This document shows positions 12,068 through 45,948 of a stretch of 64,000 nucleotides of DNA, one piece after another. The notes below the pieces were generated by a model, which worked only from the letters and a program-made list of their open reading frames with translations, searched no databases and was not told where the DNA came from. The position numbers and the translations under genes were made by a program. Every line of letters starts with the position of its first letter. The first letter of the stretch is position 1. The DNA comes from DHVE2 group archaeon. GTDB taxonomy: Archaea; Thermoplasmatota; Thermoplasmata; Thermoplasmatales; Aciduliprofundaceae. The stretch is taken from assembly GCA_027023265.1 (NCBI GenBank), contig JALVVV010000055.1, positions 19,907-83,906 on the forward strand. Reading direction: 5' to 3'.

Positions 12068-12077
12068 TATATATTTG
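12068..12077 (+). promoter_or_regulatory. TATA-box-like element about 25 nt upstream of the aminotransferase ATG (leaderless-type promoter)
   Basis: gtatatattt is centred about 25 nt before the ATG at 12097, and there is no SD in between. Confidence 0.4.
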
Positions 12078-12096
12078 CGACACTCATGCCCTAACT

Positions 12097-13410: not shown

Positions 13411-13427
13411 ATTTTTCTATTTTTTAT

Positions 13428-14977: not shown

Positions 14978-15040
14978 TCACGATGGGAATTATTCGGGAA
15001 TATAAAATCTTTTTCTCTATAAGGGACATTCAATTATGGT

Positions 15041-15871: not shown

Positions 15872-15891
15872 AAAGAGAGGTTTAATTTAAA

Positions 15892-16911
15892 CTATTCCCT
15901 TTTTGCTTCTATGCTGTAATCCCAGAACAGGGGCCCATACTTTACGATTTTCGCCCATCTCTCTCTGCATTTGCAGTTCAGGTTAGCAAGGTAAGAAATG
16001 TCCTGGTGCAGCGAGAAATCATATATGGCTTTCACTACAAGCTCGTCACACTTGCCGCAGTTATGTGCTCCTCTTTTTGTCCCTCCAGCAGTTGGGTACG
16101 ACACTATCTCTCCAAGCTCGTGCGTTCTTTTTAGAACCTCCACGATGCTCCACAGCCACGGGGGGCTGTACTCCCCGCGTTGCCACAGGTACTCTACCAG
16201 TGTATTTCTCTGTATGTTCATTGGATTTAGCGAAACCACTTCAGAGTATCGTGTAGCCAGCTTTATTGTCATAATTGCCTCTTCTATTGCCTCCCTTTCG
16301 GTCATAAAAGGTGGTTTTAGCAAGGCGTAGCTCTTTACAGGAATTTTTGCGTCGTTTAGCAGTTTAGCGGCGTTTACGTAATGTCTCACCAGAAATCCCT
16401 TGTTTATGCGAAATAAAAGTGTTTCATCGTTGGCGCTTTCTAAGCCAAGAGCGATCATGACTTTCTCCTTTGATTTGAGCCACTCTATTTTCTTCTTTAC
16501 AAATTCTGGTCTGGTCTCTACAATTATTCTCTCCGCAGATGAAAATGAATCTATAATTTCATTTTGAATTTCAGTGGGGACCTCATCATCGTCCAAAAAG
16601 CTTCCCGAGGTGTATATCTTCACTAATTTCTCTCCGCGGTACTTTTCAAGTGCGTCCTCTATCTGCTGTTTCAAATCTTCTTTTTTTATTGCTGAGCTTG
16701 TATCGTTGTAGTACCCGCACATGGAACATCCCGATACTTTTGCCCACCTGCACCCTGTAGTTCTCAAAATAACAACAAAAGAATCTATAATCTCTCCATT
16801 GAGCCGGTCCTTCTCCCTCCACGCGCCTATCAATCCTTTTTTTTCGGGCCTTCTATTTTGCCTTCTCAGCTCCCTTATCTTTCTTACTATTTCCACGTGT
16901 TCCTCATGCAT
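15892..16911 (-). CDS. Radical SAM protein, possibly the RaSEA-type (TIGR01210-like) archaeosine-synthesis enzyme
   Basis: Cys cluster TTGCRWAKVSGCSMCGYY near the N-terminus and a second Cys cluster (CGKCDE...CKC) at the C-terminus. The family-level assignment is from memory only. Confidence 0.7.
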   Translation of the reverse strand: MHEEHVEIVRKIRELRRQNRRPEKKGLIGAWREKDRLNGEIIDSFVVILRTTGCRWAKVSGCSMCGYYNDTSSAIKKEDLKQQIEDALEKYRGEKLVKIYTSGSFLDDDEVPTEIQNEIIDSFSSAERIIVETRPEFVKKKIEWLKSKEKVMIALGLESANDETLLFRINKGFLVRHYVNAAKLLNDAKIPVKSYALLKPPFMTEREAIEEAIMTIKLATRYSEVVSLNPMNIQRNTLVEYLWQRGEYSPPWLWSIVEVLKRTHELGEIVSYPTAGGTKRGAHNCGKCDELVVKAIYDFSLHQDISYLANLNCKCRERWAKIVKYGPLFWDYSIEAKRE

Positions 16912-26458: not shown

Positions 26459-27558
26459 TTTACCAGTAACTCGTTTGCCTTTCTCATTATTCTAAACTCG
26501 CCTATGCTCTCTGCTACCTTCTTTGCCTCTTCCAGGTGAAATCTGGCCGCTTCTTTCATGTTGCTTTCAAGGAGAACTCGGCCAATGGCAAGCTCGCACT
26601 CGCTCAGAAATACCCTGTGGTTAATTTTCACAAAAATTGAACGAGCATCGTTATAAGTTCTCATGGCTTTCCTGTAATCTCCACTTTTCTCATATACGTA
26701 GCCAAGGTTTAGCAAAGACTCTCCTATTGTGCTTTTATTTTTAACTTCTTTGGATAGCTCCACCGCCTCGTTTGCAAGTTTCATGGCTTCATCGTATTTT
26801 CCCCTGTCTGCAAGAATTACAGCTAAGTATCCAAGCGTGGACGATTCTATTTCCTTGTCTTCGTGATTTTTGTAGAGTTCCACAGCTTCCCTCAAATATC
26901 TCTCTGCATCATCTAACTCTCCAGATTCTCTTGCCATGTCGCCCATGTTTAGCAGATTTATAGACATGCCCCGGTAATCGTTTCCCCTTTTCGAATGTTC
27001 GTAAGCATGCTTGTAGTGCTCGATGGCGTTTCGGTACTCTCCTCTAACTCTGAATACTTCCCCCATGTTGTTATAGGCTATTGCTATTAACTCGTCATCT
27101 CCTATCTTTTTTGAGATTTCTAGGCACCGCTCCCAGCTTTTCTTTGCATATCCTATCCTGCCCCTGTCAAAAGAGTATATGCCAACTAAGTTGTAAAAAT
27201 TGAACATTGTCTCCGGCTTTGATTTCTCAGCGTGCTTGAACCCTAACTTTATCAAATGCTCACATGTATCTATATTCCCAAGGCTCATGTTTATTTCTAT
27301 TGCAGAAGTGTATATCTTGGTTAATGTATCGTCATCACCTGAAGATTCTGCAAATTTAATAGCATCGTTAACGTGTTCCCTCGCAAGTATTGATTCGCCA
27401 ATCCTTATATATACCCTTGATAAACCGTAATGGATGAGTGCTTTATCTATGTCCCTGCTTGCTTCACCGAGAGCGTTTTCGTACAATTTCCGAGCCTCTT
27501 CGTAATTTCCATTTCTGCGGAGTTCTTCTCCTTTCTTAAGAACATCCTGTATATTCAT
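26452..27558 (-). CDS. TPR-repeat protein (stand-alone)
   Basis: Repeated 34-40 aa units such as AYNNMGEVFRVRGEYRNAIEHYKHAYEH. Its stop overlaps the downstream radical SAM start by 7 nt (ATGTTAG). Confidence 0.8.
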   Translation of the reverse strand: MNIQDVLKKGEELRRNGNYEEARKLYENALGEASRDIDKALIHYGLSRVYIRIGESILAREHVNDAIKFAESSGDDDTLTKIYTSAIEINMSLGNIDTCEHLIKLGFKHAEKSKPETMFNFYNLVGIYSFDRGRIGYAKKSWERCLEISKKIGDDELIAIAYNNMGEVFRVRGEYRNAIEHYKHAYEHSKRGNDYRGMSINLLNMGDMARESGELDDAERYLREAVELYKNHEDKEIESSTLGYLAVILADRGKYDEAMKLANEAVELSKEVKNKSTIGESLLNLGYVYEKSGDYRKAMRTYNDARSIFVKINHRVFLSECELAIGRVLLESNMKEAARFHLEEAKKVAESIGEFRIMRKANELLVKC

Positions 27559-30786: not shown

Positions 30787-32478
30787 TCATTCTTTTCTTT
30801 TGAACATTTTTTCAAGATCATTGGGGGTGAACTTTATCATTGTTGGACGTCCGTGGGGACACGTGTATGGATTTTCGCATTTTAGAAGTTGGCCTATTAA
30901 GTCTTCCATCTCGTAGATGGATAACTTGTCGTGGGCCTTTATTGCTCCTTTGCAGGAGATTAATTTTATTATCTCATCTCTCTTCTTCTCTATATACTCC
31001 TTTCCTATAGCAATTATTCCCCTTATCACTTCAACCACATCATCCCTTTTCAAAATGGGGGGAATACCTCTAACAATAATGGCGCCATCTCCAAAGTCAT
31101 CTATTAGAAGGCAAAAATCCCTGAGTTTGTCTTTCATAGCTATGAGCTCTTGATAGTCCCGCACACCCAAATTTATTACAACAGGTTCTATTAGCTCCTG
31201 AATTTTATGCTCTCTCATCTCTGCTAAAAATTTCTCGTACCTTATGCGCTCGTGGGCTGCATGCTGGTCCACTATTATCAGTGAGTCACTTGATTTGGCA
31301 ATGATGTATGTGTCATCGAACTGGCCGAGTACCTCTATACCGGGAACTCTTGCGCGGGACAGGTAGTCAAACAGGCTCTTTTTCTTTCCTTTGTCCTCTA
31401 CATTGAATACCATCTGCCTTTCCTTTTTAACCTCTCCATATACCGGTTCTGAGACTTTTTTCGCATCTGTGTCTTTCTCCACGGGGATATTATCAGAGGC
31501 AGTTAGCTCTTCCCAGATTGCGTCTTCTATAACCTTCTTAATTGATTCTTCGTCCCTGAATTTAATAACGAATTTTGAAGGATGCACATTTACATCTATT
31601 TCCTCAGGCGGAACGTTCAAAATAAGCACCGCATAAGGATAAACGTCCCTGAACAGGAGCGTTCGGTATCCTTCTATTATGTAATGCGTAAGTGTGTAAT
31701 TTTTGACGTATCTTCCGTTGACGAAAGTTACTATCCTGTTTTTATCCTTTCTGGTCATGTATGGCTTGGAAAAAAATCCCCTGAAACTCACCTTTCCCTC
31801 TCTTTTGATTTCGACCATGCTTCTGGCAACGTCCTTGCCCCACAGGGTAGATATCCTGTTGATAAGGGGGCCTGGCGGCACGTCAAATACCTTGCGTCCG
31901 TTGTGATATAGGGAGAAATGAATGTTCTCGTATAATAGTGCGTATTTCTCCATAATACCCATGATTTGCCCGAACTCGTATCTCTCCCCTTTTAAAAATT
32001 TAAGTCTGGCAGGGGTATTGTAAAAAAGTGAGCGCACAGCAATGCTTGTTCCAGGAGGGCATCCGGCGGGCTCTACTTTCAAAACAGTGCCACCATTTAT
32101 TATTATGTGCGTGCCCACAGGCGATTCATATGGTCTGGTAAGAAGCTCTACTTTTGAAACGGCCGCTATGCTGGGCAATGCCTCTCCCCTGAATCCCAGA
32201 GTACGTATGTTGCACAGATCTTTTTCATCTTGTATTTTGCTGGTGGCATGTCTTTCAAATGCCAGTTTTGCCTCTTCTTCTGTCATTCCTATTCCATTAT
32301 CAACAACTCGTATCTCCTCTAATCCTCCTTTCTTGATGTATACAGATATCTTTGTAGCGCGGGCATCTATGCTATTTTCGACAAGTTCCTTTACCACGCT
32401 TGCAGGGCGCTCCACAACTTCCCCTGCTGCTATCTTTTCTACCAGTGTTCTTGGGAGAATTTTTATTTTAGAGCTCAC
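30787..32478 (-). CDS. mutL: DNA mismatch repair protein MutL, endonuclease-type
   Basis: GHKL motifs ELVENSIDA, DNGIGM and GFRGEAL. C-terminal DQHAAHERIRYE (31234-31269) and CPHGRP motifs. Confidence 0.9.
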   Translation of the reverse strand: MSSKIKILPRTLVEKIAAGEVVERPASVVKELVENSIDARATKISVYIKKGGLEEIRVVDNGIGMTEEEAKLAFERHATSKIQDEKDLCNIRTLGFRGEALPSIAAVSKVELLTRPYESPVGTHIIINGGTVLKVEPAGCPPGTSIAVRSLFYNTPARLKFLKGERYEFGQIMGIMEKYALLYENIHFSLYHNGRKVFDVPPGPLINRISTLWGKDVARSMVEIKREGKVSFRGFFSKPYMTRKDKNRIVTFVNGRYVKNYTLTHYIIEGYRTLLFRDVYPYAVLILNVPPEEIDVNVHPSKFVIKFRDEESIKKVIEDAIWEELTASDNIPVEKDTDAKKVSEPVYGEVKKERQMVFNVEDKGKKKSLFDYLSRARVPGIEVLGQFDDTYIIAKSSDSLIIVDQHAAHERIRYEKFLAEMREHKIQELIEPVVINLGVRDYQELIAMKDKLRDFCLLIDDFGDGAIIVRGIPPILKRDDVVEVIRGIIAIGKEYIEKKRDEIIKLISCKGAIKAHDKLSIYEMEDLIGQLLKCENPYTCPHGRPTMIKFTPNDLEKMFKRKE

Positions 32479-32522: not shown

Positions 32523-33332
32523 TTATTTCATCTCCTTTCTCGCAAATATCACAGTACCTAATATTGCCGATGCAATGAAGTACACGAACATAATTGCGAT
32601 ACCTTCCCATATGTATGGGTTATAAACAGTAAGAGTCATAGCATTTCCTGCGTGTATTATCTGTTTGTGAGGGTAATCTCCAATATAACTTCCCCGTAAT
32701 ACCAGTGTTATTATGCTGGCACCATAGGTCAGTGAAAACCAGGGCTCCACACCGGCCACCTGCGAGAGCCCATTTATTATATTGAATACAAAAAAGTATA
32801 TTATGGCAACTATTGTTATGGAGACGGCTCCGTTTTTAAAGAATGTAGAGAATAGATATGTGAAAGCCATTAAGCTTAATAGAAATATGAAAGAGTACAT
32901 TACTGAATAAATATATTCTGAGGGAACTTTCCCGTGAAAATAAGCGGTGTATATCGCACCGGATATGAAATAGAGTATGAGCACCAGTGAACTGGCCACT
33001 ATGGATGCTACGAACTTTCCCCAGTATATTACATGGCGTTTTATGGGATTTGGAAACAGCAAATATCCAGTTTTGTTCTGAAACTCTGATGATATGGCGT
33101 CACCTCCGAAGAAAAGGGCAGTTAAGACAACAAGTATTTCCGAAAAGCTAGCAAAGTTATTTGCTGTGTTCTTTGGAGTCTCAAATGATGGATTGCCAAA
33201 ATATGCATTGATACTCACTATCAATGCAATTACTATAACTGTGATTAAAAGGATTATGTAAATTCTCCTTGACCTGATGTAGTTTTTGAAATGGTACCTG
33301 CTCATTATAATCATTTGACGCAAATCACTCAT
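32523..33332 (-). CDS. ABC-2-type transporter permease
   Basis: Six predicted hydrophobic helices. 8-nt overlap with the upstream ATPase gene. Confidence 0.75.
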   Translation of the reverse strand: MSDLRQMIIMSRYHFKNYIRSRRIYIILLITVIVIALIVSINAYFGNPSFETPKNTANNFASFSEILVVLTALFFGGDAISSEFQNKTGYLLFPNPIKRHVIYWGKFVASIVASSLVLILYFISGAIYTAYFHGKVPSEYIYSVMYSFIFLLSLMAFTYLFSTFFKNGAVSITIVAIIYFFVFNIINGLSQVAGVEPWFSLTYGASIITLVLRGSYIGDYPHKQIIHAGNAMTLTVYNPYIWEGIAIMFVYFIASAILGTVIFARKEMK

Positions 33333-34239
33333 TTATTTCCCCACCTATCATCTCGAGATATGCTTTTTCCAGGGGCATTCCCGAAAGGCGATAATCCACA
33401 ACTTTTACGCCGGAAGAAAGCAGCTTTGATAAAAGAAGATAACGGGTATTGTCATCTCCCTCAAATTCTATTTTTATCTTTTTAGGTGAGAGCTTTTCCA
33501 CGGATTTTACCATGTCAATGGCTCTCACTCTTTCCTCGTCAATGTCATTGAGCGCTGTAACCATTACAGAGTTTTCTCTAAATTTATTGTTGAGATTATC
33601 AATGCTTTCGTAGAGCAATAACTTGCCATGGTTAATCATGGCTACCTCCTCGCATACATCTGTAACTTCTGGGAGAAGATGTGAAGACATTAGTATCATT
33701 CTTTTTTCCTTCTTAAGAGATTTTATTACTTCTCTGATTTCCGCCATTCCTCGCGGGTCCATGCCAGATGTGGGTTCATCAAGAATAAGAATTTCTGGAT
33801 TTGTTATGAGTGCAGCGGCAAGAGCAACTCTTTGCTTCATGCCCTTTGAAAATTTACCAGTCTTTTTGTTTCTCCACTCGTACATGCCTACTTCTTCAAG
33901 TGCAGACTTTATATCGCAATTACTGGCCATTCTGAGTTCACATAACATTTGCAGAAGTTCCGAAGGTGTAAGGTACGGATACAGACCCGGGGTTTCTATT
34001 AAAGTTCCAACATTGCTCAATGCTTTTGTTGATTCATCTTTCACGCTGTACCCGTTTATTATGGCTTTTCCACTGGTGGGGTTTAGCAAGTTGGTAAAAA
34101 GTTTCAATGTTGTGGTTTTCCCAGCGCCATTTGGCCCCAGGTATCCTATGCACTTTGCACCTTCAAATTTCACATTCAATTCCTTGAGTGCAAAGAAATT
34201 ACCGTATTTTTTTGTAAGGTTAATTGCTTCTATGTACAA
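33325..34239 (-). CDS. ABC transporter ATP-binding protein
   Basis: Walker A GPNGAGKTT, signature FSKGMKQR, Walker B ILILDEPTSGMD. A TTG start at 34239 has GAGGTGAT 4 nt upstream and avoids overlap with the upstream gene, giving MYIEAINLTKKYG. Confidence 0.88.
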   Translation of the reverse strand: MYIEAINLTKKYGNFFALKELNVKFEGAKCIGYLGPNGAGKTTTLKLFTNLLNPTSGKAIINGYSVKDESTKALSNVGTLIETPGLYPYLTPSELLQMLCELRMASNCDIKSALEEVGMYEWRNKKTGKFSKGMKQRVALAAALITNPEILILDEPTSGMDPRGMAEIREVIKSLKKEKRMILMSSHLLPEVTDVCEEVAMINHGKLLLYESIDNLNNKFRENSVMVTALNDIDEERVRAIDMVKSVEKLSPKKIKIEFEGDDNTRYLLLSKLLSSGVKVVDYRLSGMPLEKAYLEMIGGEINE

Positions 34240-34243
34240 TGTA

Positions 34244-34711
34244 TCACCTCTTCTTTCTCTCCCTGAGCAAAAGTATGATACCTGCCACAATCACTATTAT
34301 TCCGGTGATGCAAACTCCTGAGCTCTCCAAGAGTGTTTTTCCAAGAGATAACAGCTTCTCCTGACTCTCAAATACCACCGCCACTTGAGCTGTGGAATTT
34401 TCAGGGTTCTCTATTTTCAGGGTGTAATTTCCTTGAAGGTTGCCGAGAACGTGGGTATCTTCCGTTACATTGTTTTCTTGGAGAATGTTTCCAGAAGAAT
34501 TTGAGAGGAAATAATTAATTTTAATATTTGACTTGATAACCAGCGTATAGTTTCCCCCATGTATGTTGTATTTCAGCACTTTTGTTTGATTAGGTTCCAC
34601 ACTCACATTTTTCTCAATCGTTTCCATGCCCTTCATGGAAAAGGCCAAAATACCCACCGCCGCCATCACTATTATAAAGCCAATTAGCAGTATAACCACA
34701 CCCATTCTCAT
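34244..34711 (-). CDS. Bitopic membrane protein with an extracytoplasmic beta-rich domain
   Basis: N- and C-terminal TM helices. Internal repeat GGNYTLVIKSN / QGNYTLKIENP. Confidence 0.6.
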   Translation of the reverse strand: MRMGVVILLIGFIIVMAAVGILAFSMKGMETIEKNVSVEPNQTKVLKYNIHGGNYTLVIKSNIKINYFLSNSSGNILQENNVTEDTHVLGNLQGNYTLKIENPENSTAQVAVVFESQEKLLSLGKTLLESSGVCITGIIVIVAGIILLLRERKKR

Positions 34712-34712: not shown

Positions 34713-35537
34713 TCAAATCACCTCCTTTTTTTTATTCCATTTGTATATCATATACCCTATGGGTAGGAAAATGAGGAATAGCATTAAGGCCATGAACCAT
34801 GTCCAGGGGACAATGGTTTTTCTCAAAGCGTAAATGTATATGGAATAATACACAAAAATTAGAATCACTGACATGATGTTCATAGAAAGAACAGTGGCCT
34901 TCAAGAGGGTATCCTTGGGAAATCTCATTTTGCCGGGATGAATGTACATGGGATATTTTTTCCCCAAGTAAATGAACAGGTATGAAACGCCCGGGGATAT
35001 TAGGGAGAAAAGAGAATACGAGACTATAAATGATGATTTTGTGCTCCATCCGTTTGGATTACCGTACGAGTCAAAATGCACTGCTATAATTTCTGGTAAA
35101 GAGGGATATGTCATAATCTCGAATATTATTAATACAAGGTAAAAAATGAGAGGGGATAGCACCCACACGTATCCCAGCTCTATGCTTTCTATTTTTTTAT
35201 ATGACACGTTTTCTGATTTTGCGCCCTTCATTTCAAGGTGTATTGAAGCGTATCTTATCCCAAAGGGTATGAATGCTATCAGGGGTATGGTGAGAAGTAA
35301 GGTATATGGTAACAGGAAATTCGGGAGCAATGCTGCAGGAAGTAGAAGGAGAGAGTGCGCAATGATGAATTTTCCCATGAGCCTGTTTGTCCCGTTCCAC
35401 ACATCTTTGTCTGCGAAGGTGTATCCTATTTTAAATCCAAAATATGGGTTTGGCCCCACTTTCGGGGCAAGCCAGAATTCCATAATTCCGGTTATTAAGT
35501 ATAGTGAATTAATAATCAAAATTAGTATGTTAACCAA
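34713..35537 (-). CDS. Polytopic membrane protein, DUF1648/SdpI-like
   Basis: HFDSYGNPNGWSTKSSF resembles the DUF1648 motif. Multiple TM helices. TTG start abuts the PadR stop (TGATTG). Confidence 0.6.
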   Translation of the reverse strand: MVNILILIINSLYLITGIMEFWLAPKVGPNPYFGFKIGYTFADKDVWNGTNRLMGKFIIAHSLLLLPAALLPNFLLPYTLLLTIPLIAFIPFGIRYASIHLEMKGAKSENVSYKKIESIELGYVWVLSPLIFYLVLIIFEIMTYPSLPEIIAVHFDSYGNPNGWSTKSSFIVSYSLFSLISPGVSYLFIYLGKKYPMYIHPGKMRFPKDTLLKATVLSMNIMSVILIFVYYSIYIYALRKTIVPWTWFMALMLFLIFLPIGYMIYKWNKKKEVI

Positions 35538-35879
35538 TCAATCACCCCTTATTATTCTATTTGCTGCTCTCATTAATTTTTTGTAGTCTTCAATTAAATT
35601 AATCAACAGGAGCCTTCCCTCTTCTGTGAGTGTGTAATACTTGCGCGGCACTCCCGTGTTAGGCTCTGTCCAGTATGCTTTGAGAACTCTTTTTTTGACT
35701 AAATATCTCAATACCGGGTAAATTGTAGCGTCTTTGAGCTCTATTCCAGCTATGTTGTTAACGTACTTTTGTATTTCGTATCCGTACGTTTCTCCAAGTT
35801 CATCAATTACTTTAAGAATGAGTAGTGCGTATATCCCAGAGCGCATTTCTCTGTTGATTTTCTCTCTTACTTTCTCCAT
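35538..35879 (-). CDS. PadR-family transcriptional regulator
   Basis: LLILKVIDELGETYGYEIQKYV...ATIYPVLRYLVKKRVLKAYW winged-helix pattern. ATG at 35879 gives MEKVREKI. The track extension to 35966 is unlikely. Confidence 0.85.
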   Translation of the reverse strand: MEKVREKINREMRSGIYALLILKVIDELGETYGYEIQKYVNNIAGIELKDATIYPVLRYLVKKRVLKAYWTEPNTGVPRKYYTLTEEGRLLLINLIEDYKKLMRAANRIIRGD

Positions 35880-35896
35880 ACATAACACCGTTATGT
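35880..35896 (-). promoter_or_regulatory. Perfect 7-bp inverted repeat (ACATAAC-N3-GTTATGT) abutting the PadR start codon, a candidate autoregulatory operator
   Basis: The + strand reads acataacaccgttatgt, a palindrome with ACAT/ATGT half-sites reminiscent of PadR boxes. A TATA-like cttaaataaa lies about 45 nt upstream of the ATG. Confidence 0.35.
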
Positions 35897-36044
35897 ATGT
35901 TCTATCGTTATAGATGCCTTTATTTAAGTTTTTTGTAAAGCACATCCGTGAGGCTTTGCTTGACAATTTATGGGCGGTATTGAGTAACTCTTCTTTCTTG
36001 AGAGGTAGACGAATAATTTATAAGGAGAATGTCATGGGGGTAAC

Positions 36045-36132: not shown

Positions 36133-36456
36133 ATGGCCGAGTTGAATATTGGTGTGGAAGAGAAAATAAAGCTTGAAAAGTTGTTTCCAAAGGCTGACGT
36201 TGTGAGGATGGTTTCGAAGCATTCACCCCTGTACTACGGGAATATATATCCTATTGATGCAAAATACAAGCCGCTTTTAGGGGTGTTTTTTTACTTTGAT
36301 AACGAGAAGGTATATACATACCACGATGGTTTTGTGTGGATTGCTCCCGAAGACAGAATTTATATGAAAATAATGAACGTGCTAACTCTGACGGGAGATG
36401 GAAGAATAAGGATTGAGGGCGGAATGGAGTATTACTTTGGTGTGGAAAAGATTTAG
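36133..36456 (+). CDS. Hypothetical protein (about 107 aa)
   Basis: ORF beginning 14 nt after tRNA-Arg (ATG at 36133, or GTG at 36124). No motif recognised. Confidence 0.45.
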   Translation: MAELNIGVEEKIKLEKLFPKADVVRMVSKHSPLYYGNIYPIDAKYKPLLGVFFYFDNEKVYTYHDGFVWIAPEDRIYMKIMNVLTLTGDGRIRIEGGMEYYFGVEKI

Positions 36457-37322
36457 ACATCCACTCCAAAAACTGCCCTTATGACCACACCAATTAGAAA
36501 TGATACTGCAGCTATACCGAAGCTTATTGCCACCATTTCCATAAACAGTCTCTTGAAAGAGAGCTCTTTTACGACCGATACGAAAAATGTGAACAGCGAT
36601 ATGGCAAATACTCCCGCGAGAAGCGTGCCAAATAGCGCGTAGTAGTAGTTTTCAAGCAAAAAATATGGAAGAATGAGAATTACCACCGTTAGAAAATATG
36701 CCACTCCCGTATATGTGGCGGCCTTGCCTGGTTTCTCAAATTTTTCTGATTTTCTTGATAGGTACTCTGATGATGCCATTGACATTGCTGCCGCTAACCC
36801 GGTGATTAACCCAACAACACCGGTAAGCTTTGTGTTTTGAAGTGCAAAAGTTAATCCTGCAAGAGCACCGGTGAGTTCAACAAGCGCATCGTTTAGTCCT
36901 AAAACCATAGAACCTACGTAATCTATTTTTTCTTCTTTAATCATGGATATCAAGGCACGCTCGTGTTCTACTTCATCATCAATTATTTCGTCAATTCCAT
37001 CTATTATACCTTTGAGGGAACTGTACGCTTCCTGGGCTTCTTCTTCACCTGTCTCCATCATCTTTATGGCAAAGGTAACTCCAAATATTCTGGAGAGAAA
37101 TATGTACTTTTTTATCTTCCAGTGATCTGGTTCAATATCTTCTCCGGTGTATTTGCGCCAGAATCTGTAATGCCCAAGTTCTTCGTTTGCAATTTTTTCT
37201 AACAGTTTTCTATTTTTTCTGTCAATATTTGCAAGTTTTTTATAAACTTCGTACTCCGTTATCTCGTTTCTCTGAAAAGTACGAATCTTACTTTCAATCG
37301 ATGAGTCCAGAGACCCTAACAT
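36453..37322 (-). CDS. VIT1/CCC1-family iron transporter with an N-terminal ferritin/rubrerythrin-like domain
   Basis: ExxH pairs EELGHYRFW and EVEHERAL. VIT1 core GLNDALVELTGALAGL plus C-terminal TM helices. ATG at 37322 avoids overlap with rps10. Confidence 0.8.
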   Translation of the reverse strand: MLGSLDSSIESKIRTFQRNEITEYEVYKKLANIDRKNRKLLEKIANEELGHYRFWRKYTGEDIEPDHWKIKKYIFLSRIFGVTFAIKMMETGEEEAQEAYSSLKGIIDGIDEIIDDEVEHERALISMIKEEKIDYVGSMVLGLNDALVELTGALAGLTFALQNTKLTGVVGLITGLAAAMSMASSEYLSRKSEKFEKPGKAATYTGVAYFLTVVILILPYFLLENYYYALFGTLLAGVFAISLFTFFVSVVKELSFKRLFMEMVAISFGIAAVSFLIGVVIRAVFGVDV

Positions 37323-37362
37323 ATACTTAAAACGGAAAGTAAATATAAATAGATTGCGAGGC

Positions 37363-37677
37363 TCAGGACTTGAGCTCAATTTCTATATGTATTCCATCAG
37401 GAATCTGGATGCGCATTAACTGCCTCAGAGCACGCTCATCGGCATCAATATCTATCAACCTTTTATGTACGCGCATCTCCCAGCGCTCCCATGTCTCAGA
37501 ACCCTCTCCGTCGGGAGCCTTTCTTATGGGCACCACAAGCCTCTTCGTGGGAAGCGGTATTGGGCCATGCATCTCCACACCTGTTCTCTTGGCTATGGTG
37601 CGAATCTGGTCGCATACCTCATCAACCCTTTTGTGGTCGATGCCGCTTAGTTTTATTCTTGCTCTGTAGACAGCCAT
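37363..37677 (-). CDS. rps10: 30S ribosomal protein S10 (uS10)
   Basis: [49 protein letters not shown] before the ATG at 37677. Confidence 0.93.
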
Positions 37678-37703
37678 AAAAATCACCAAAAATAAAAAGG
37701 GGT

Positions 37704-38975
37704 TTAGAATTCTTTCTTCTCGACCTCAATGCACTGCCCTGCAGCTACGGTCTGGCCCATATCTCTAACGGCAAACCTGCCAAGCTGTGGAATTTCCTTT
37801 ACGGGCTCTATGACCATTGGTCTGGTGGGGCGAATCTTCACTATTGCTATGTCTCCGGTCTTTATGAAATCTGGGTGGTCCTGTTTGGTAGAGCCAGTTC
37901 TCGGATCGAGGGTCTTTATGATTTCTTCAAATGTGCATGCAACCTGTGCGGTATGGGCGTGGAACACAGGTGTGTATCCCGGTGCGATAACGCTTGGATG
38001 GTTCAGCACGACTATCTGCGCGGTGAACGTCTTGGCCACTGTGGGCGGGTTGTTGCTGTGTCCTGCCACGTCTCCTCTCCTTATGTCCTTCTTGCCCACG
38101 CCTCTTACGTTGAACCCAACGTTGTCTCCAGGATACGCTTCTTTCATTGCCTGGTGGTGCATCTCTATGCTTTTAACTTCTCCACCTACATTTGCAGGCA
38201 TGAATGTTACCTTATCACCCACCTTGAGAACTCCTGTCTCAACGCGGCCCACCGGCACGGTTCCTATTCCTGTTATGCTGTAAACGTCCTGTACAGGTAG
38301 GCGAAGTGGCTTGTCAGTTGGCTTCGGCGGAAGCTTCAATCCATTCAGGAGCTCTATGAGCGTGGGGCCATTCCACCATGGCATGTTCTCGCTCTTCTTC
38401 ATTACGTTATCTCCCTTGTAACCGCTAATCGGAATGATGGGCACGTCCTTCCATCCTATCATGGCCAGCAGCTTCTCCACCTGCTTCTTAACTTCCTCAA
38501 ATCTCTCCTTGCTGTAGGGTGGCTTTGTTGCATCCATCTTGTTTATGGCAACTATGAGCTGTGGAACGCCCAGTGTCCTGGCGAGGAACAGGTGCTCTTT
38601 GGTCTGCTCCATAACACCCTCAGGTGCAGCTACTATGAGTATGGCCGCATCTGCCTGAGATGTACCTGTAATCATGTTCTTCACGAAATCCCTGTGCCCC
38701 GGGGCATCGATTATCGTGAAATAGTACTTGTCCGTAACGAACTTGCGGTGTGCTACATCTATTGTCACACCTCTCTCTCTCTCCTCCTTCAGGCGGTCCA
38801 TAACCCATGCGAACTCGAAAGTAGCCTTACCCTTCTCTTCAGCTTCCTTTCTGTAGTTCTCTATTATTCTCTGGTCAATTTCGCCATGCTCGTACAGCAG
38901 TCTTCCCACAGTGGTTGACTTGCCGTGGTCCACATGTCCGATGAACACGATATTCATATGTGGTTTTTCTGCCAT
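37704..38975 (-). CDS. tuf: Translation elongation factor aEF-1alpha
   Basis: [17 protein letters not shown] and NKMD motifs. Full-length, 423 aa. Confidence 0.97.
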
Positions 38976-39020
38976 TTTTAATACCTCCTATTCGGTTTTC
39001 GCACTCCCATATACTCATTG

Positions 39021-39028
39021 TATATAAA
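39021..39028 (-). promoter_or_regulatory. TATA-box-like element (tttatata on the minus strand) upstream of tuf
   Basis: Lies about 46-53 nt upstream of the tuf ATG, with SD AGGAGGT in between. Confidence 0.4.
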
Positions 39029-39098
39029 TGCTTTTGCCATACATTACTTGTGAATCTCTGGAACAACTTAAAGAATGTTTATCGGTTATTGTTGGTTG

Positions 39099-42000
39099 TT
39101 ATTTATTAAACGTACTGTTTCCATTGCTTTGATTATCAAATTTGCCGAGCAATTTAGTGATTTTACTGACGTAGTACTCGAATCCCAGTTCTTTAAATAT
39201 GGTTTTGGCAGATTTTAAAAGATTTATGCCCTCTTCTATTGAGGAATCCAGTTTTATTAGTCCCATGTCCATCAGGGAAAGGGCATAGTTTCTCCTTATA
39301 TCTGTTTTCTCAGATAATTTTATTGCCTCTTTTATGTATTTCTCTCCGTTTTCAACATCCCCTGTTAATCCCATGACCTTTCCAATGAGTCGCAGTGGAT
39401 TTATTTTCATTATTTTGGATTTTTCCTCTTCTGCTATTTCCAAGGCGGCTTTTGCATGTGCCATCGCTTCATTGTAATTTTTCGTTTCTACCATGATCTC
39501 TGCCATGGTGATGTGGCTCTCATACAGACACTCTTTACAGTTTATATCACTGAGGATTTTTAAGCTTTCGTTAATATCCTCCACTGCTTCTTTCTCGTTT
39601 CCAGATGCAAACATGAGGGTAGCGATATCTCTTTTTGTCTCGCCTATCCCAATATCTGAATTTATGGATTCATATAATTCCATGGCTTTCATGTAAAATT
39701 CGTATGCATCGTCAAATTTACCCCTGAAATAGTGAATGTTGCCAATATACCTGTAGAGATCCGCTATGCTTTCTTTATCGTCCTGCTCTTTAGCAATATT
39801 CAAGGCTTTTTTAAAGTAATCCATTGCTTCGTTTAACATTCCCCATGTTGCATATATCACACCTATGTTCATATATGCAAGCATAGTGGAGAACCAGTCA
39901 TTAATCATCTCGCTTATTGATAAGCTCATTAGATAGTACTCCACTGCCTTGTGCAGGTTCTCTCTCTTTGCGTATATGTTTCCTATATTTGTAAGCACTA
40001 TGGGCCTGCTACTGTACACATACCCTATTTTGTCAAGTATTTTAAGTGCGTTTTTGTAATTTTCCAGCGCATCATCTAACTTTCCCATCGCATCGCAGGT
40101 TGCTCCCAGATTGTTATAATCAGTGGCAAGACCGTATAGGTCATTTATTTTCTCTCTTATCTTCATGGCCTTCATAAAATACTTATATGCGCTTTCAAAA
40201 TCCATCATATGCTCGTATATCGTTCCTAACACGTGATACGCATCTGCCTCTTCTTTGGTGAAGCCTTTTGATATCGCTATATCTGCTCCTTTTTTTGCAT
40301 ATTTTATTGCGTCATTTAGCTTGCTTCGCCGGATATACATCCATGCAATATCCAGATATATCTTTGCAGCTATGGAATTTTCATCACTTAGCATTGATAA
40401 AGCATTATAATACATGTCCTTTGCCTCGTCCCATTTTCCCATGCTGTCCATAGTTCTACCCATTCTTTCAAGGTACTCTGCGGCGTTATTTTTATTGCCC
40501 GTTGCTCTTGCTATTTTTAGTGCATTTTCAAGGTCACTTATACTTTTAGCGTACTCCCCCATGATTCTGTGCAATTCCCCTAATTCTGAATAAAGAAATT
40601 CCAGCTTCTCATCGTCTATGTTAAGTTCCTTTGCTTCCATGTATATTTCCAACGCGTCTTCATATGCGTAGATGTCCTTGGCACGTGCTGCGCCATTTAT
40701 GAAATACTCGTATGCTTTTTCTGGCACCTCACCCAGCTTGTAATGCCTGGCAATGTTTACCAGATACTTCTCATCATGTCCTTTTTCTTTCTCCATTACT
40801 TTTGCAATTTTTCGGTGAAGTAATTTTCTCTTTATTATTGACATTTCAGCGTATATTTCCTCTCTGACTATTCTTTCTTTAAATATATAGAAACCCGTAT
40901 CGGGGTCTTCCTCCCAAATGCCGACGGAGCTTATCCTTTCAAGCGCATCTATTAAATCAATCTCGTCTATTCCTACGGCTTTACCGAGTATTTCCGGGTC
41001 GATTCTGTATCCATATACAGTACCCACTTCCAGAACTCTTTTTTCAAGGGGTGTTAACATATCATATTTTCTGCTAACTATTGATTTTACAAGCTCTGGA
41101 ATACTTATACCGCCTCCCAAATTCTCATCGATGGATTCCATCATGTTCAGAGCCAATTCTCTAACAAAGAGAGGGTTGCCGCCACTGTATTCGTAAATCA
41201 TCTTTTTTACTTTTTCGTCAACGTTTCTTCCCGCAATTTTGTCTATCATTTCACTAACATCTTTGTATTTAAGTTCTCTCAGTTTTATCTCCTTATACAG
41301 TTTTTCTCTCATCATTTTGGATAGTACATCTCGAAGCGTATCGGTGATTTCCTCTCTTCTGAATGTGCATACAAATAGAATTCTCCTATCTTTTAGATTT
41401 CGTATTAGATAATGAAGAAGTTTAAGTGATGAGGAATCCATCCATTGAATATCGTCAAAAAAGATGAAAAGCTTGTTATTTTCCGTAAGTTGCTTTATTT
41501 TTTCCGTAAATTGATAAAACATTGCATTTCTCTGGTACTCTATATTCTCATTTTCACCGTGTTTTTGGGTATTTTTCAATACAGTACCTATCTCATCTCC
41601 GAATGCTTCTACAATGGGTAGATACGGAACTGTGGAATCATAATACGCCTTTGAATATAGAAATTTAAAGCCCCGTGACAGTGCATAGTTTTTAGCTTTC
41701 ATTACAAGGGTGGTTTTACCAATTCCAACTTCCCCAGATATCACCAGTGCATTTCCTTCTTTCTCAGAGGCTTCAATCATCTCAATAATTTCTTTCAGTT
41801 CTTTTTCTCTTCCCACAAAAACATCATCTTCTTCAATTCCGAGAGAATCAAAGAGAGATATTGCTGTAGAGGAAAATATCCTGTCACTATATTTAACGTA
41901 AACTTTTCTACCATTTGGAACTACGATATCTATCAGGTTCTTAAGGAACTCTACAAACGACTTTTCAGAAGCCATTTCTATCATGTACTCTGTGCATTCT

Positions 42001-42617
42001 ATATAGACATCTTTTTCTTTTATATCTTTTAACATTTCCAAACCAATTTCAAGAAAACGTTCCACCGAGCCGAACTCTCCGACGTACACTCCGTTTACAC
42101 CCTTATTAGATGTTATAATTACTGCAGTATTCCCTGAATATTCTTTTACCATAATCACTTTCGGATTCTCCATCTTTGTGTGTTTCTCATATGTGAAATC
42201 CGAAATAGAGCTCCAGCTTTTGGGATTTCCATTAACTCCCAAAACCAAGGTTAGGTTTTTATTTAGCGATTTGACTCTTTTTATCCAGTCAATTACGCGC
42301 TCCTTGCCATTAATTATGCTCAAATAATCTATTCCGTCCACCATAATACATTTTCCACCGGAGTTAACGTATTCTTCGACGATTTCCATCATCTCAAAAT
42401 CAAGACGTTCTGGATACACGGTGCCTTTTTTCCCATTACGGGTTATCCATACTACCTTTTTCACTCCGTATCTTTCTTTCAAAACTACATTGGGTTTTAT
42501 GCTCAAAATGAGGGAATCTGGGCACTGATTTAAAGCTAAATACGCAGAATGCACATTGGCTATAACATTAATCTTACCTTTTACAAGAGGTATCATACAG
42601 CTATCCATCATTTCCAC
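39099..42617 (-). CDS. Large STAND-type NTPase: N-terminal DUF835-like module(s), AAA_16/ORC-like P-loop NTPase, winged-helix-like segment, and a long TPR array
   Basis: aa 40-130, SLILSIKPNVVLKERYGVKKVVWITR...IMVDGIDYLSIINGKERVIDWIKRV, resembles DUF835. Walker A GEVGIGKTT (41709-41735). Walker B LFIFFDDIQWMD. About 500 aa of TPR units, e.g. DYNNLGATCDAMGKLDDALENYKNALKIL. Start is ambiguous (GTG 42617, ATG 42611 or 42608). Confidence 0.85.
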   Translation of the reverse strand: MEMMDSCMIPLVKGKINVIANVHSAYLALNQCPDSLILSIKPNVVLKERYGVKKVVWITRNGKKGTVYPERLDFEMMEIVEEYVNSGGKCIMVDGIDYLSIINGKERVIDWIKRVKSLNKNLTLVLGVNGNPKSWSSISDFTYEKHTKMENPKVIMVKEYSGNTAVIITSNKGVNGVYVGEFGSVERFLEIGLEMLKDIKEKDVYIECTEYMIEMASEKSFVEFLKNLIDIVVPNGRKVYVKYSDRIFSSTAISLFDSLGIEEDDVFVGREKELKEIIEMIEASEKEGNALVISGEVGIGKTTLVMKAKNYALSRGFKFLYSKAYYDSTVPYLPIVEAFGDEIGTVLKNTQKHGENENIEYQRNAMFYQFTEKIKQLTENNKLFIFFDDIQWMDSSSLKLLHYLIRNLKDRRILFVCTFRREEITDTLRDVLSKMMREKLYKEIKLRELKYKDVSEMIDKIAGRNVDEKVKKMIYEYSGGNPLFVRELALNMMESIDENLGGGISIPELVKSIVSRKYDMLTPLEKRVLEVGTVYGYRIDPEILGKAVGIDEIDLIDALERISSVGIWEEDPDTGFYIFKERIVREEIYAEMSIIKRKLLHRKIAKVMEKEKGHDEKYLVNIARHYKLGEVPEKAYEYFINGAARAKDIYAYEDALEIYMEAKELNIDDEKLEFLYSELGELHRIMGEYAKSISDLENALKIARATGNKNNAAEYLERMGRTMDSMGKWDEAKDMYYNALSMLSDENSIAAKIYLDIAWMYIRRSKLNDAIKYAKKGADIAISKGFTKEEADAYHVLGTIYEHMMDFESAYKYFMKAMKIREKINDLYGLATDYNNLGATCDAMGKLDDALENYKNALKILDKIGYVYSSRPIVLTNIGNIYAKRENLHKAVEYYLMSLSISEMINDWFSTMLAYMNIGVIYATWGMLNEAMDYFKKALNIAKEQDDKESIADLYRYIGNIHYFRGKFDDAYEFYMKAMELYESINSDIGIGETKRDIATLMFASGNEKEAVEDINESLKILSDINCKECLYESHITMAEIMVETKNYNEAMAHAKAALEIAEEEKSKIMKINPLRLIGKVMGLTGDVENGEKYIKEAIKLSEKTDIRRNYALSLMDMGLIKLDSSIEEGINLLKSAKTIFKELGFEYYVSKITKLLGKFDNQSNGNSTFNK

Positions 42618-42658
42618 ATTGTTTCAAAAATAATAAACTTTCTCAAAAAGAAGATAGA

Positions 42659-44863
42659 TTAGAGGCCTGCGTAATATGCCTCGTCATAGGGTTCTGGTTT
42701 CAAACCCTTTCTTTCGCGGATCTTGCGAACTATCTGCGGCTGCAGGTCCCTCGGCACGCGCTCGTATCCGGAGTTCTCAGTGCTCCAGAGGACTCTTCCA
42801 CCCGTGGCGCTTCTGATTGCGGAAGCGAAGCCGAACATCTCTGCCACCGGCGCCTTCGCGTGGATTATCGTCTGGTAGTCTTCCTGCTCCATGTCCTCTA
42901 TGATACCTCTTCTCTGCTGCAACTCCCTTGTTACTGCACCCACAAGCTCCGTGGGCACATTGACGTATACCTTTTGCATGGGCTCCAGGAGAACGCGGGT
43001 TGCCTGACACATCGCACCGTATATTGCATTGCGCACGGCAGGTATTACCTGCGCAGGACCGCGATGGATACTGTCTTCGTGGAGCTTTGCATCCACCAGC
43101 CTTACCTTTACTCCATATAGCTTCTCATTTGCCAGAGGTCCCTTTTCCACAGCTTCAAAGAATGCCTGTTTTACCAATTCCATGGTCTCATTCAAATACT
43201 GGACACCCCAGGTCATGTCCAAGAGTATGTTCGGGCCGCGGATTGCTTCAATTTTCTTAGCTTCATCTCTTGATAATCCAGCCTCTTCCAGCTTCTTGGT
43301 TATTGCTTTCCTATCCTTTATCCTATCCATTTCGGGAATTTCTCCGCTTTCAATTGCCTCTACAACTCCTTTTTCCAGGGGCTCAACTTCAATGTAGAAC
43401 TTGTTGTGCTTGTTCGGTGACTTACCTTCAAATGGCCCCGCCTTGTGGTCCACAGTTTCTCTATAAACCACGATTGGGGGAGAGGTTATCACTTCAACCT
43501 TGTACTCGTTAACTATGCGATAAACGGTGACCTCTAAATGCAATTCTCCCATTCCGCTAAGGAGGTGCTCACCCGTTTCCTGGTTTATTTCTACTCTCAG
43601 GCTCGGATCCGCTTTGGATACCGTGCGCAAAACTTCTATTAAACGAGGCAAGTCCTTGGTGTGCTTTGCTTCAATTGCCACGGTGACCACCGGTTCGCTG
43701 TAGTGTTTCATCGGTTCAAATGGCTCTATGTCCGGCTCGGTGGATACGGTTGAACCCGCAATCGCATCTTTAAGGCCGATAATGGCAGGGATATTTCCTG
43801 CATCCAGCTCGTCAACGGGTATTCTATCAGGCCCCACCATCATCGAAAGTTGCTGAATCCTGTACTTTTTCTTGCCTGCACCTATTATGTAGAGTTCTTG
43901 TCCTTTTCTGAGTGTGCCGCTGAAAAGACGGCCCACAGCAACCTCGCCAGCGTGCGGGTCCATGACTATTTTGGTTACCATCATTGCCACAGGTCCCTTC
44001 GGGTCACAGGTGAGCATAGCCTTCCCTATGGGACTCTCTAAGTCCCCATGCCATATTTTTGGAATTCTATATTTTTGAGCCTCCTTGGGGTTTGGCAGGT
44101 GCTTGACCACCATATCAAGAACGACCTGATGAAGGGGTGCCTTCTTTGCAAGTTCCTTTTGCTTATCTTGCTGAAGGTGCTCGAACACGTCTTTGAAGGA
44201 TATCCCAGATTTCTTCATGAACGGTACGCTTATTGCCCAGTTGTGATAAGCTGAGCCGAAAGCCACGCTGCCATCCTCCACGCGAACCATCCACTTGTCC
44301 CTGTATTCTTCTTCCGCGTATCTCCTTATCAACTTGTTAATTTCCTTAATTATCTTCTCAAATCGAGCCATCATTTGCTGACCGTCTAACTTGAGCTCGT
44401 TGATGAGACGGTCAACTTTGTTTATGAAAAGCACAGGCTTTACCCTCTCCCTGAGCGCCTGGCGAACTACAGTCTCGGTCTGAGGCATGATTCCTTCCAC
44501 GGCACAAACCACTACCACTGCACCATCAACAGCCCTCATGGCTCGAGTCACATCACCTCCGAAATCGACGTGGCCGGGAGTATCCAGTAGATTAATCAAA
44601 TACTCATTTCCCTCGTACTCGTGAACCATGCTGGCAGATGCAGTGTTAATTGTTATGCCGCGAGCCTGCTCCTGCTCATCGTAATCCAGAACCAGCTGCT
44701 TGCCGGCAAGTTCTTCTGACATCATACCCGCGCCAGCTATCAGATTATCGCTGAGCGTGGTCTTTCCGTGATCTATGTGAGCAGCAATACCTATGTTTCT
44801 TATGTGCTCAACGTCACCCATTATTTTCATTGCTTTTTTGATATTATCCTCTTTCCTTCCCAT
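42659..44863 (-). CDS. fusA: Translation elongation factor aEF-2
   Basis: [18 protein letters not shown] and NKVDR. Diphthamide-site context [11 protein letters not shown]. Confidence 0.97.
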
Positions 44864-44873: not shown

Positions 44874-45440
44874 TTATCTTGCAGATGCCGCCACGCGCTC
44901 AATCTCTTCTTTCTTGGAGACTGCGTAGCTCGAAACGTCATTTTTCGAGGCCTTGATAATCTCGTCGGCAAGGCACTCTGCGGCGGATTTTGTATTTCGG
45001 AACGTGGAATTTACTGCTCCAAGCGCAATGTTGCGGAGAGCAATGTCCACCCTTCTTGATGGGGCCACGTCCACCGCCTTTGGCACGGCTATACCTGCCA
45101 TCTTCAACCTCGTAACTTCTTCTCGGGGTGCTGCGTTTATTATGGCATTAACCAGTACCTGCACCGGATTCTGCTTTGTTCTTTTTTCTATTATTTCAAA
45201 TGCGCCTTTTACAACGCCGTAAGCACTCATCTTTTTCCCAGTATATTTCTCCGTACGCATCATGTGGTTTATGAGCCTCTCAACTATGTTTACCTTGGAT
45301 TTCCCCAGGTGCCTCAGAACATGCCTCCCGTGGGTATGAAGCACCATTCTGGGCTCAAGGTTAATGTACCTTACCAGCCCAGGGTCTTTGACAACTACAT
45401 CATCCGTGGAGTATTTTCCAAATATAAGAAAGTCCACCAT
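44874..45440 (-). CDS. rps7: 30S ribosomal protein S7 (uS7)
   Basis: Position between S12 and EF-2, plus [41 protein letters not shown] upstream. Confidence 0.93.
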
Positions 45441-45444: not shown

Positions 45445-45873
45445 TCACCTCACAGGTTTCTCCTTTCTACCGCGAACAAGTTCGTTCAGGGATATCCCGT
45501 TTACTTTTATAACTTTATAACGCACTCCGGGGATATCTCCTTTGGAGCGCCCCAGCCTTCCGCCTATTCCTTCAATAACAACCTCATCGTGCTCATCTAT
45601 GAAATTTATGGCACCGTTGCCAGGTGCAAAAGCAGTTACAACCCTTCCGTTCTTTATGAGCTGCACCTTCACGCACTTTCTTATGGCGGAGTTGGGCTGC
45701 TTTGCCTCAATACCTACTTTTTCAATAACTATGCCGCGAGCCTGAGGCGAGCCCTCCAGCGGGTCGCTCTTTTCTTTCAAATGAAGAACTCTCCTCTTGT
45801 GATACTTATCACTCCACCTGAGCTTTTGCCTATCTTCACGCAGTTTTCTTGCATTGTAAAGTCCATTTCCCAT
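45445..45873 (-). CDS. rps12: 30S ribosomal protein S12 (uS12)
   Basis: [19 protein letters not shown]...[19 protein letters not shown] before the ATG at 45873. The track's N-terminal extension is implausible. Confidence 0.93.
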
Positions 45874-45948
45874 GGGAATCACCCTTTTGAAGCACCTAAA
45901 TAACCATGCATATAAAAATTTTATTACGTTTGAGCGCATTATTCCTCT

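Follow-up and report, generated by a model that had tools for sequence, protein, structure and literature searches.

A gene at 39099..42611 on the minus strand of a 64,000-nucleotide stretch from a deep-sea-vent archaeon of the DHVE2 group (assembly GCA_027023265.1, contig JALVVV010000055.1, positions 19,907 to 83,906; the whole stretch is hereafter called the window) encodes a 1170-amino-acid protein in which a tandem pair of DUF835 modules precedes a STAND nucleoside triphosphatase (NTPase), an arm, and a long array of tetratricopeptide repeats (TPRs). The protein is a PH0952/MalT-like STAND switch with a tandem dead-KaiC (DUF835) accessory, a rare combination of known parts, and its gene is inserted between those for elongation factor 2 (EF2; aEF-2, fusA) and elongation factor 1-alpha (EF1a; tuf). 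The insertion is genuine and recent, and only two very closely related genomes share it. With a probability slightly above one half (about 0.55), the gene is read here as a self-contained cytoplasmic signaling switch of the PH0952/MalT kind that would use the DUF835 pair as its output and whose position between EF2 and EF1a is accidental.

Domain anatomy of the STAND protein

The large open reading frame (ORF) extends from a GTG codon (39099..42617, minus strand, 1172 codons), and the ATG at 42611 (MMDS...) is most likely the true start. The MMDS start is conserved in L007, the sole orthologous locus available, whereas the identical protein in GCA_027081835.1 (P0001, 1165 aa), encoded on an identical contig (the twin, L001), begins at a Met, residue 8 of the window ORF (region 42596-42617), that is Ile in L007; the ATG at 42611 is therefore preferred, and the deposited start of P0001 is probably five codons too short. 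Residue numbers count from this ATG (1170 aa), and Pfam coordinates use the 1172-aa translation from GTG and are two higher.

Downstream of the DUF835 pair, the nucleotide-binding domain (NBD), helical domain (HD), and winged-helix domain (WHD) are all present and thus constitute a complete nucleotide-binding oligomerization domain (NOD), as defined for the STAND class (PMC6468293). The NBD (aa 263-445; 41277..41825, minus strand, as for all features of this gene) was delimited by Pfam, alignment, and AlphaFold2 (AF2), and contains an FVGRE motif, a Walker A motif (GEVGIGKT, G293-T300; 41712-41735), a Walker B motif (FIFFDD, F382-D387; 41451-41468), and the sensor-1 residue R418. Seven residues (R268, G293, G296, G298, K299, D387, and R418) are invariant in a 36-sequence alignment, and the two Walker motifs, which a preliminary description of this DNA had read by eye, were found as described and in invariant columns. 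Pfam matched AAA_16 (267-416, 77 bits) and NB-ARC (271-490, 35 bits), both above cut-off, and further matched ATPase_2 and, in the repeat region, TPR_12 five times and TPR_MalT; NCBIfam returned only partial, sub-threshold similarities, to TOMM kinase/cyclase, AfsR, and MalT, which are TPR/STAND regulators. The HD, whose GxP motif (G478-N-P480) is invariant or nearly so across the 36 relatives, and the WHD, with its wing at 566-577, together occupy aa 446-590 (40842..41276) and were identified by alignment, AF2, and Foldseek. The arm and about 12 TPRs that follow (aa 591-1162; 39126..40841) are presumed to form the sensor/autoinhibitory domain and were recognized by Pfam, by AF2, and by matches to the TPRs of PH0952 and LGN.

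The full-length AF2 model, built on the 36-sequence alignment, had a mean confidence (pLDDT) of 85.4 and resolved the DUF835 pair, a disordered linker (250-262), the NBD (269-445), the HD (449-492), the WHD with a beta-hairpin wing (504-590), the arm (about 592-660), and helix pairs forming about 12 TPRs up to residue 1162. Its best PDB match by Foldseek was PH0952 of Pyrococcus horikoshii (6mfv_A; E = 1.4e-15, target-normalized TM-score [TMt] 0.56, 743 aligned columns, 17% identity). With a P-loop NBD bearing both Walker motifs, a NOD made of NBD, HD (GxP), and WHD, an arm and repeat sensor behind the NOD, and a DUF835 pair tethered in front of it by a disordered linker, the protein has the composition and layout of a STAND ATPase, and the P-loop, the winged helix-turn-helix (wHTH)-like segment, and the roughly 500 aa of TPRs named in the preliminary description were all recovered by Pfam and AF2. 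Pfam and NCBIfam found no nuclease, protease, TIR, or LuxR domain in the protein, as that description had also stated, and no SIR2 domain. An Orc1/Cdc6 identity was rejected, given that the hits were to AAA_16, NB-ARC, ATPase_2, and nSTAND and that the NOD is succeeded by an arm and TPRs totaling about 570 aa; no Cdc6/ORC family stood among the best 25 of 29 Pfam matches or the best 25 of 27 NCBIfam matches. The profile searches thus bore out neither of the doubts raised at the outset, that the NTPase might be a conventional Orc1/Cdc6 and that the N-terminus might not be DUF835-like.

That N-terminus consists of two modules. Module 1 (aa 1-135; 42207..42611), assigned by Pfam, AF2, and Foldseek, matched PF05763 at aa 48-129 (E = 2e-13, 50.6 bits against a cut-off of 33.1), and module 2 (aa 136-250; 41862..42206) gave a weak Pfam match to the same region of the DUF835 profile (E = 0.0027, 17.9 bits). 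The two halves aligned to each other in hhalign with a probability of 97.4% (E = 1e-11) and are therefore a tandem duplication, module 2 being the diverged duplicate; the one or two DUF835-like modules suspected earlier are accordingly two, the first identified by its Pfam score and the second by hhalign. An AF2 model of aa 1-263 (18 homologs; pLDDT 91.4, predicted TM-score [pTM] 0.89) was used to search the PDB with Foldseek, and the top 50 matches were all full-length KaiC, aligned over both modules (E = 2e-7, probability 1.0, identity 8-10%, query-normalized TM-score [TMq] 0.34-0.40, root-mean-square deviation about 15 Å). By sequence profile, the best PDB match of the pair was FlaH/ArlH, an archaeal KaiC-like protein, at a marginal E of 0.011.

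The likeness to KaiC, a clock ATPase of two RecA-like domains, thus lies in the module fold and in the tandem two-module arrangement, which aligns to CI plus CII. The two systems differ in that a KaiC domain has about 240 aa and a DUF835 module about 130 aa, in the orientation of the modules, and in the ATPase motifs: no Walker A motif (GxxxxGK[ST]) could be read in the translation of aa 1-262, and the Walker-B-like acidic position of DUF835 is variable (D/E/H/Q) in the family alignment. In the models, the DUF835 modules have a RecA/KaiC-like fold without a P-loop, as in an inactivated ATPase. This fold agrees with a passage of Galperin et al. (2018; PMC5847659), which lists DUF835, like MEDS, among the inactivated KaiC-like ("iKaiC") domains and treats it as an output domain of archaeal response regulators; the module, called unexplored in the preliminary description, is therefore not entirely so. 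The literature searched, one collection, contained no mention of DUF835 together with STAND, and a single paper in it named DUF835 in any context.

A recent insertion between EF2 and EF1-alpha

Genes in the translation cluster were assigned by Pfam and lie on the minus strand in the order S12 (45445-45939), S7 (44874-45440), EF2 (42659-44863), the STAND gene, EF1a (37704-38975), and S10 (37363-37689). The spacer between the EF2 stop and the STAND gene is 41 nt to the GTG and 47 nt to the ATG at 42611, and 123 nt separate the STAND gene stop from the tuf ATG; the coordinates, the gene order, and the 41- and 123-nt spacers reported earlier were all correct. Homologous loci were gathered by an EF2 scan with one genome per species, by which the window falls in the DHVE2 group (Aciduliprofundum relatives, Thermoplasmatota), and seven local proteins were compared by tblastn against the 33 EF2 loci. 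The STAND gene stood between EF2 and EF1a at two of these loci, the twin contig L001 and L007, and at no other; in L007, EF2 is 99% and the STAND gene 88% identical to the window, and the contig ends within the gene. At 16 other DHVE2/Thermoplasmatota loci (EF2 67-94% identical), EF1a stands directly after EF2 and is followed by S10. With two loci that carry it and 16 relatives that do not, the STAND gene is not a conserved member of the str-type (S12-S7-EF2-EF1a-S10) cluster, and the lineage-specific insertion proposed earlier is upheld by this comparison of the fusA-tuf interval. Two metagenome-assembled genomes (MAGs) with an intact EF2-EF1a junction carry DUF835-STAND-TPR proteins elsewhere, P0003 (JALWEL) and P0002 (JAADDK), which are only 35-37% identical to the window protein.

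No terminal direct or inverted repeats or target duplications were found around the insert beyond short chance matches, and no integrase or transposase adjoins it. Long EF2 matches (~2.7-2.9 kb) in relatives were considered as possible inteins and rejected, being tblastn cross-hits from EF2 to the EF1a GTPase.

Between the window and L007, the synonymous divergence (dS) of the STAND gene is 0.49, the same as that of its neighbors (EF2 0.63, S7 0.52, S12 0.23), and the gene was therefore already present in the common ancestor of the two genomes. Its ratio of nonsynonymous to synonymous divergence (dN/dS) over the same comparison is 0.12 overall, against 0.011 for EF2; by region it is 0.04 (NTPase), 0.14-0.18 (DUF835 modules), and 0.11 (TPRs). 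The STAND gene is thus subject to purifying selection and functional.

The preliminary description had placed the gene inside a translation operon, and the flanking signals do not bear this out. A T-rich tract directly 3' of the EF2 stop (42645..42658, minus strand, with T5 at 42645-42649) is the presumed archaeal terminator of the S12-S7-EF2 unit, and T-tracts after the EF2 stop occur in all relatives with aligned spacers. On the other side, tuf is preceded by a promoter-like region with a Shine-Dalgarno sequence (38983..39037, minus strand) comprising gcaaaagc, which resembles a TFIIB recognition element (BRE; 39030-39037), the TATA box TTTATATA (39021-39028), and GGAGGT (38983-38988). EF2-EF1a spacers were compared from eight insert-free relatives (L008, L009, L010, L012, L025, L034, L035, and L039), and the block aaaagcATTTATATAc..atgagtatatggg..aggaggtattaaaaATG (BRE-like element, TATA box, and Shine-Dalgarno sequence) is kept in all eight, even where the spacer is only 56 nt long. 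The TATA-like box and Shine-Dalgarno sequence attributed to tuf at the outset lie in this block, which is common to relatives with and without the insert. From this conservation, from the T-tracts after EF2, and from the archaeal promoter and terminator consensus, we infer that EF2 and tuf are separate transcription units in this lineage, and the STAND gene would then sit between the EF2 T-tract and the tuf promoter, not inside an operon.

The STAND gene itself is preceded by a TATA-like box, TTTATTAT (42630..42637, minus strand), whose first T lies 26 nt upstream of the ATG at 42611 and which probably acts as its promoter, as the preliminary description had also thought probable. A 19-nt block around it, gagaaagtttattattttt, is identical in L007, and the rest of the spacer differs; the 26-nt distance predicts a leaderless or short-leader mRNA. 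The location between fusA and tuf is a recent, probably neutral insertion into a spacer between the presumed terminator and promoter, a clean natural case of a large gene entering between two of the best-conserved neighbors in archaeal genomes without disturbing them.

Composition gave no sign of a foreign origin, which was rejected. The STAND gene has a GC content of 37.1% (38.3% at third codon positions), 1.5 standard deviations (sd) below the mean of 51 window ORFs (42.3%), and EF2 (49.2%), EF1a, and S10 are themselves outliers at about +2 sd. Its codon adaptation index (CAI), calculated with five translation genes as the reference set, is 0.680, against 0.689 ± 0.029 for the other 46 ORFs (rank 16 of 46), so that its codon usage looks like that of an ordinary, weakly expressed resident gene. 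The GC contrast with fusA seen in the preliminary description is thus real and due mainly to the translation genes, although the 62% that it took from a single line of fusA overstates it; low GC as a foreign signature does not stand, given the average CAI and the GC-rich translation genes.

The same spacer differs in other relatives. In L019 (EF2 85% identical), EF2 is followed by a co-oriented 2075-aa ORF with STT3/AglB-like and CarboxypepD_reg similarity (9278-15505, plus strand), and no EF1a was found within 7 kb after EF2; in L027 (EF2 76% identical), an IS607-like pair, a MerR-HTH serine resolvase with a TnpB/Cas12f-like protein, follows EF2 (9408-11247, plus strand). L020, L022, L028, L029, L031, and L033 likewise have no EF1a after EF2. 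Judged from these gene orders, DNA has repeatedly landed or been rearranged in the spacer behind EF2 in sister lineages.

At the other end of the cluster, a co-oriented gene combining VIT1 and rubrerythrin-like (CCC1/ferritin-like) domains (36453-37379, minus strand; Pfam) overlaps the end of S10 by 17 nt. A VIT1 gene also follows S10 in the closest relatives L008, L009, L010, L025, and L035, and it appears to have been appended to the translation cluster in this lineage.

Relatives, proposed mechanism, and competing readings

After the DUF835-bearing homologs, the closest NTPase-TPR relatives (21-29% identity, E down to 1e-67) carry a Ser/Thr kinase, adenylate cyclase, SARP, or LuxR domain N-terminally, which makes the N-terminus the place of the effector in this clade. 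These kinase-, adenylate-cyclase-, SARP/AfsR-, and LuxR-STAND fusions share with the window protein the order of N-terminal effector, NTPase, and TPRs; their N-termini are enzymes or helix-turn-helix (HTH) domains with known outputs, whereas DUF835 has no catalytic motif. PH0952 and MalT likewise share the NBD-HD-WHD core, the arm, the C-terminal TPR sensor, and an N-terminal accessory domain, but carry DNA-binding effectors (an ArsR-like wHTH and a LuxR HTH) where the window protein has two P-loop-less KaiC-like modules, and PH0952 has six TPRs to its approximately 12.

An exhaustive HMMER search with a profile of the DUF835 pair yielded 456 clusters, of which 96 reached E <= 1e-10. When STAND proteins are set aside, the closest pairs (E 1e-51 to 1e-38) form the C-terminal halves of receptors of ~500 aa with six to seven transmembrane helices (HisKA_7TM); others come after NHL propellers or Zn-ribbons or occur by themselves, and tandem pairs are common. 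Response regulators with the architectures REC-DUF835 and REC-PAS-PAS-DUF835 are described in a passage of Galperin et al. (2018; PMC5847659). In these receptors and regulators, whose DUF835 domains belong to the same Pfam family, DUF835 lies C-terminal to a membrane or phospho-receiver sensor, and here it lies before a STAND NTPase; the order in the 7TM, REC, and NHL proteins places DUF835 where transmitter or output domains sit.

Fusions to STAND account for about 25 of the top 150 DUF835 clusters, in several layouts and at least two topologies. In layout (i), the pair precedes the NTPase and TPRs (the window protein, P0002, P0003, and P0122); in layout (ii), a TrmB/MarR-type wHTH precedes the pair (P0130); in layout (iii), the pair lies inside the NBD, in a surface loop between Walker A and Walker B (P0007 and about 15 clusters; P0131, P0134-P0137, P0141, P0196, and P0230 are further examples, with Walker A at about aa 31-47), at the point that corresponds to a low-confidence loop of the window protein at about aa 346-360; and in layout (iv), DUF835 precedes a NACHT/ATPase_2 domain and TPRs (P0180). 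That such fusions recur in different topologies speaks for DUF835 pairs and this STAND clade being functional partners. The layout (i) members are mutually only 30-46% identical, and each stands alone at a different locus among housekeeping genes; the absence of a conserved partner gene at these loci fits a self-contained single-protein system. No neighbor genes of the P0002 and P0003 loci were found within the window.

Three contigs carried further genes of these families. In L043, a Thermoplasmatota MAG, KaiC-like ATPase genes (PF06745) adjoin P0073 on either side, and the same 10-kb contig also encodes a solitary DUF835 protein and another AAA_16-TPR protein (KaiC-like, DUF835, and AAA_16-TPR neighbors at 5008-5451, 8564-9280, 9691-10153, and 1-2175). 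L040 has two layout (iii) paralogs about 2.3 kb apart (8001-11483 and 13765-17193), among MetRS, primase, and SRP54 genes. In L127, P0133 (8001-11174) matches the second DUF835 module only and is preceded by an 88-aa ORF (7690-7956), which may be its module 1, split off or frameshifted; another STAND gene, of the ATPase_2/AAA_16-TPR type (2301-4829), lies 3 kb upstream, beside SUI1 and TmcA genes.

By analogy with the established STAND mechanism (PMC6468293), the arm and about 12 TPRs would hold the NOD closed on ADP and sense a putative inducer. The inducer would release the hold of the TPRs and arm, whereupon NBD, HD, and WHD would open, ATP would replace ADP, and the protein would multimerize, ligand-triggered oligomerization being the step taken from the family. 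The multimer would cluster the flexibly tethered N-terminal DUF835 pairs, and these could relay the signal by protein-protein contact; lacking catalytic motifs, the modules would most likely provide a docking or mimic surface for partner proteins. The most plausible target would be the KaiC-family ATPase network of archaea, and KaiC-family ATPases are the leading partner candidates because of the fold of the modules, the gene neighborhood in L043, and the hub role proposed for KaiC-like ATPases in archaeal signaling (Makarova et al., 2017, mBio, as cited in Galperin et al., 2018; PMC5847659). The insertion would have landed between the EF2 terminator and the tuf promoter, and the gene, of resident type and weakly expressed, would be driven by its own TATA box.

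Signal transduction in archaea is still little understood. Several "dead KaiC" domains stand at the output ends of archaeal receptors, DUF835 among them. Mounted on a STAND switch, whose oligomerization-driven output is well understood, a DUF835 pair offers a soluble, single-polypeptide system for probing the role of DUF835, and its value would lie in a tractable handle on DUF835/iKaiC function and a possible link from STAND to KaiC signaling. A bolder version, which we regard as speculative and doubtful, would make STAND oligomerization a third, cytoplasmic input into the KaiC-centered network of archaea, beside 7TM and REC inputs, the activated multimer presenting an iKaiC ring or platform that docks on or mimics KaiC/RadA/ArlH-type ATPases and thereby switches them; were this true, the fusion of DUF835 to the STAND clade in at least two arrangements would mark an obligatory, undescribed functional partnership.

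Several points weigh against the signaling-switch reading as set out here. The inducer is only putative, and the output role of the DUF835 pair is read from the position of the domain within these architectures. Layouts (ii) and (iii), including the wHTH in front of the pair in P0130, are as compatible with regulation or co-sensing as with output. KaiC-like neighbors were seen in only one of the eight family contexts examined (L043), and neither a KaiC-like gene nor a further DUF835 gene was found within the 64-kb window. The promoter and terminator assignments draw on sequence and on conservation among close relatives only. To our knowledge, there is no experimental study of any DUF835 protein.

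The best-surviving rival, considered unlikely, would reverse the roles: the DUF835 pair would be an additional input, autoinhibitory, or oligomerization module, and output would take another route, e.g., DNA binding by the WHD or by a wHTH as in relatives, or recruitment by the TPRs, which would make the protein a transcription-type regulator of the PH0952/MalT kind. This would suit the wHTH located N-terminal to the pair in P0130, the extra N-terminal segment of P0073, and the approximately 15 clusters with the pair in the NBD loop, which in PH0952 lies at the tip that contacts the TPR sensor and is thus a natural regulatory site; MEDS, a related iKaiC domain, was also originally proposed as a sensory domain. 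The window protein, however, has no HTH before its DUF835 pair, DUF835 stands in the place of the transmitter in REC-DUF835 and 7TM-DUF835 proteins, and homologous STAND proteins put effectors at the same N-terminal position, all of which favors the signaling switch with DUF835 as output.

A less probable alternative still, and an improbable one overall, is an antiviral receptor resembling Avs proteins, in which the TPRs would recognize a viral protein and the clustered DUF835 modules would be toxic, e.g., by poisoning RecA/RadA/KaiC-type rings. Avs proteins have the same layout of N-terminal effector, STAND, and C-terminal TPR-like sensor, and the DUF835-STAND family is non-syntenic, with 30-46% identity between genomes whose EF2 is at least 90% identical and with each cluster rare, as in the turnover of defense genes. 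Nevertheless, PADLOC matched generic TPR models only (PDLC01169 and PDLC01171), with no Avs or other STAND defense model and nothing on the NTPase or the N-terminus; the domain searches described above revealed no known cell-killing effector; translation or housekeeping genes are the neighbors in every context examined, with no defense island; the dN/dS of the TPR region indicates purifying selection; and the closest related NTPases belong to signaling proteins. Viral contigs gave only NTPase fragments of about 20% identity and no close relative of the STAND protein, and a metagenome scan based on a TPR pattern brought back almost nothing but TPR proteins. Of the regulatory and defensive roles offered by the preliminary description, the defensive one thus found no positive support.

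A functional position, in which the protein would sense or regulate translation (e.g., elongation-factor supply) through co-expression with fusA and tuf, is very improbable: the gene is co-oriented and close to both neighbors (41-47 nt after EF2, 123 nt before tuf), no strong T-tract follows its own stop so that some read-through to tuf is possible, and several relatives lie beside TFIIB/Gar1, RNase PH, MetRS/SRP54, and SUI1/TmcA genes, but the position is held in two very close genomes only and is empty in 16 relatives, other family members occupy unrelated loci with no shared neighbor, tuf keeps its conserved promoter and EF2 its T-tract, codon adaptation is average and unlike that of translation genes, most neighbors in small genomes are housekeeping genes anyway, and the same spacer took up unrelated DNA elsewhere (the STT3-like giant ORF and the IS607-like element).

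Other genes in the window

Elsewhere in the window, an Mre11-like phosphoesterase and a Rad50 with a zinc hook are encoded as a pair (8079-11992, plus strand), and a homolog of bacterial-type MutL (HATPase_c_3, DNA_mis_repair, and MutL_C) lies at 30787-32478 (minus strand); no MutS-like gene appeared among the neighboring ORFs scanned, no search aimed at MutS having been made in the window. A stand-alone 368-aa TPR_12/TPR_MalT protein (26452-27558, minus strand) overlaps a radical-SAM gene by 7 nt and was considered as kin of the TPR part of the STAND protein, to which it shows only generic similarity (25% identity). About 1 kb past the VIT1 gene, a PadR-family regulator stands beside an SdpI/DUF1648 membrane protein (34713-35966, minus strand) and an ABC-2 exporter pair (32523-34290), a layout that resembles a small cassette of the toxin- or peptide-immunity type.

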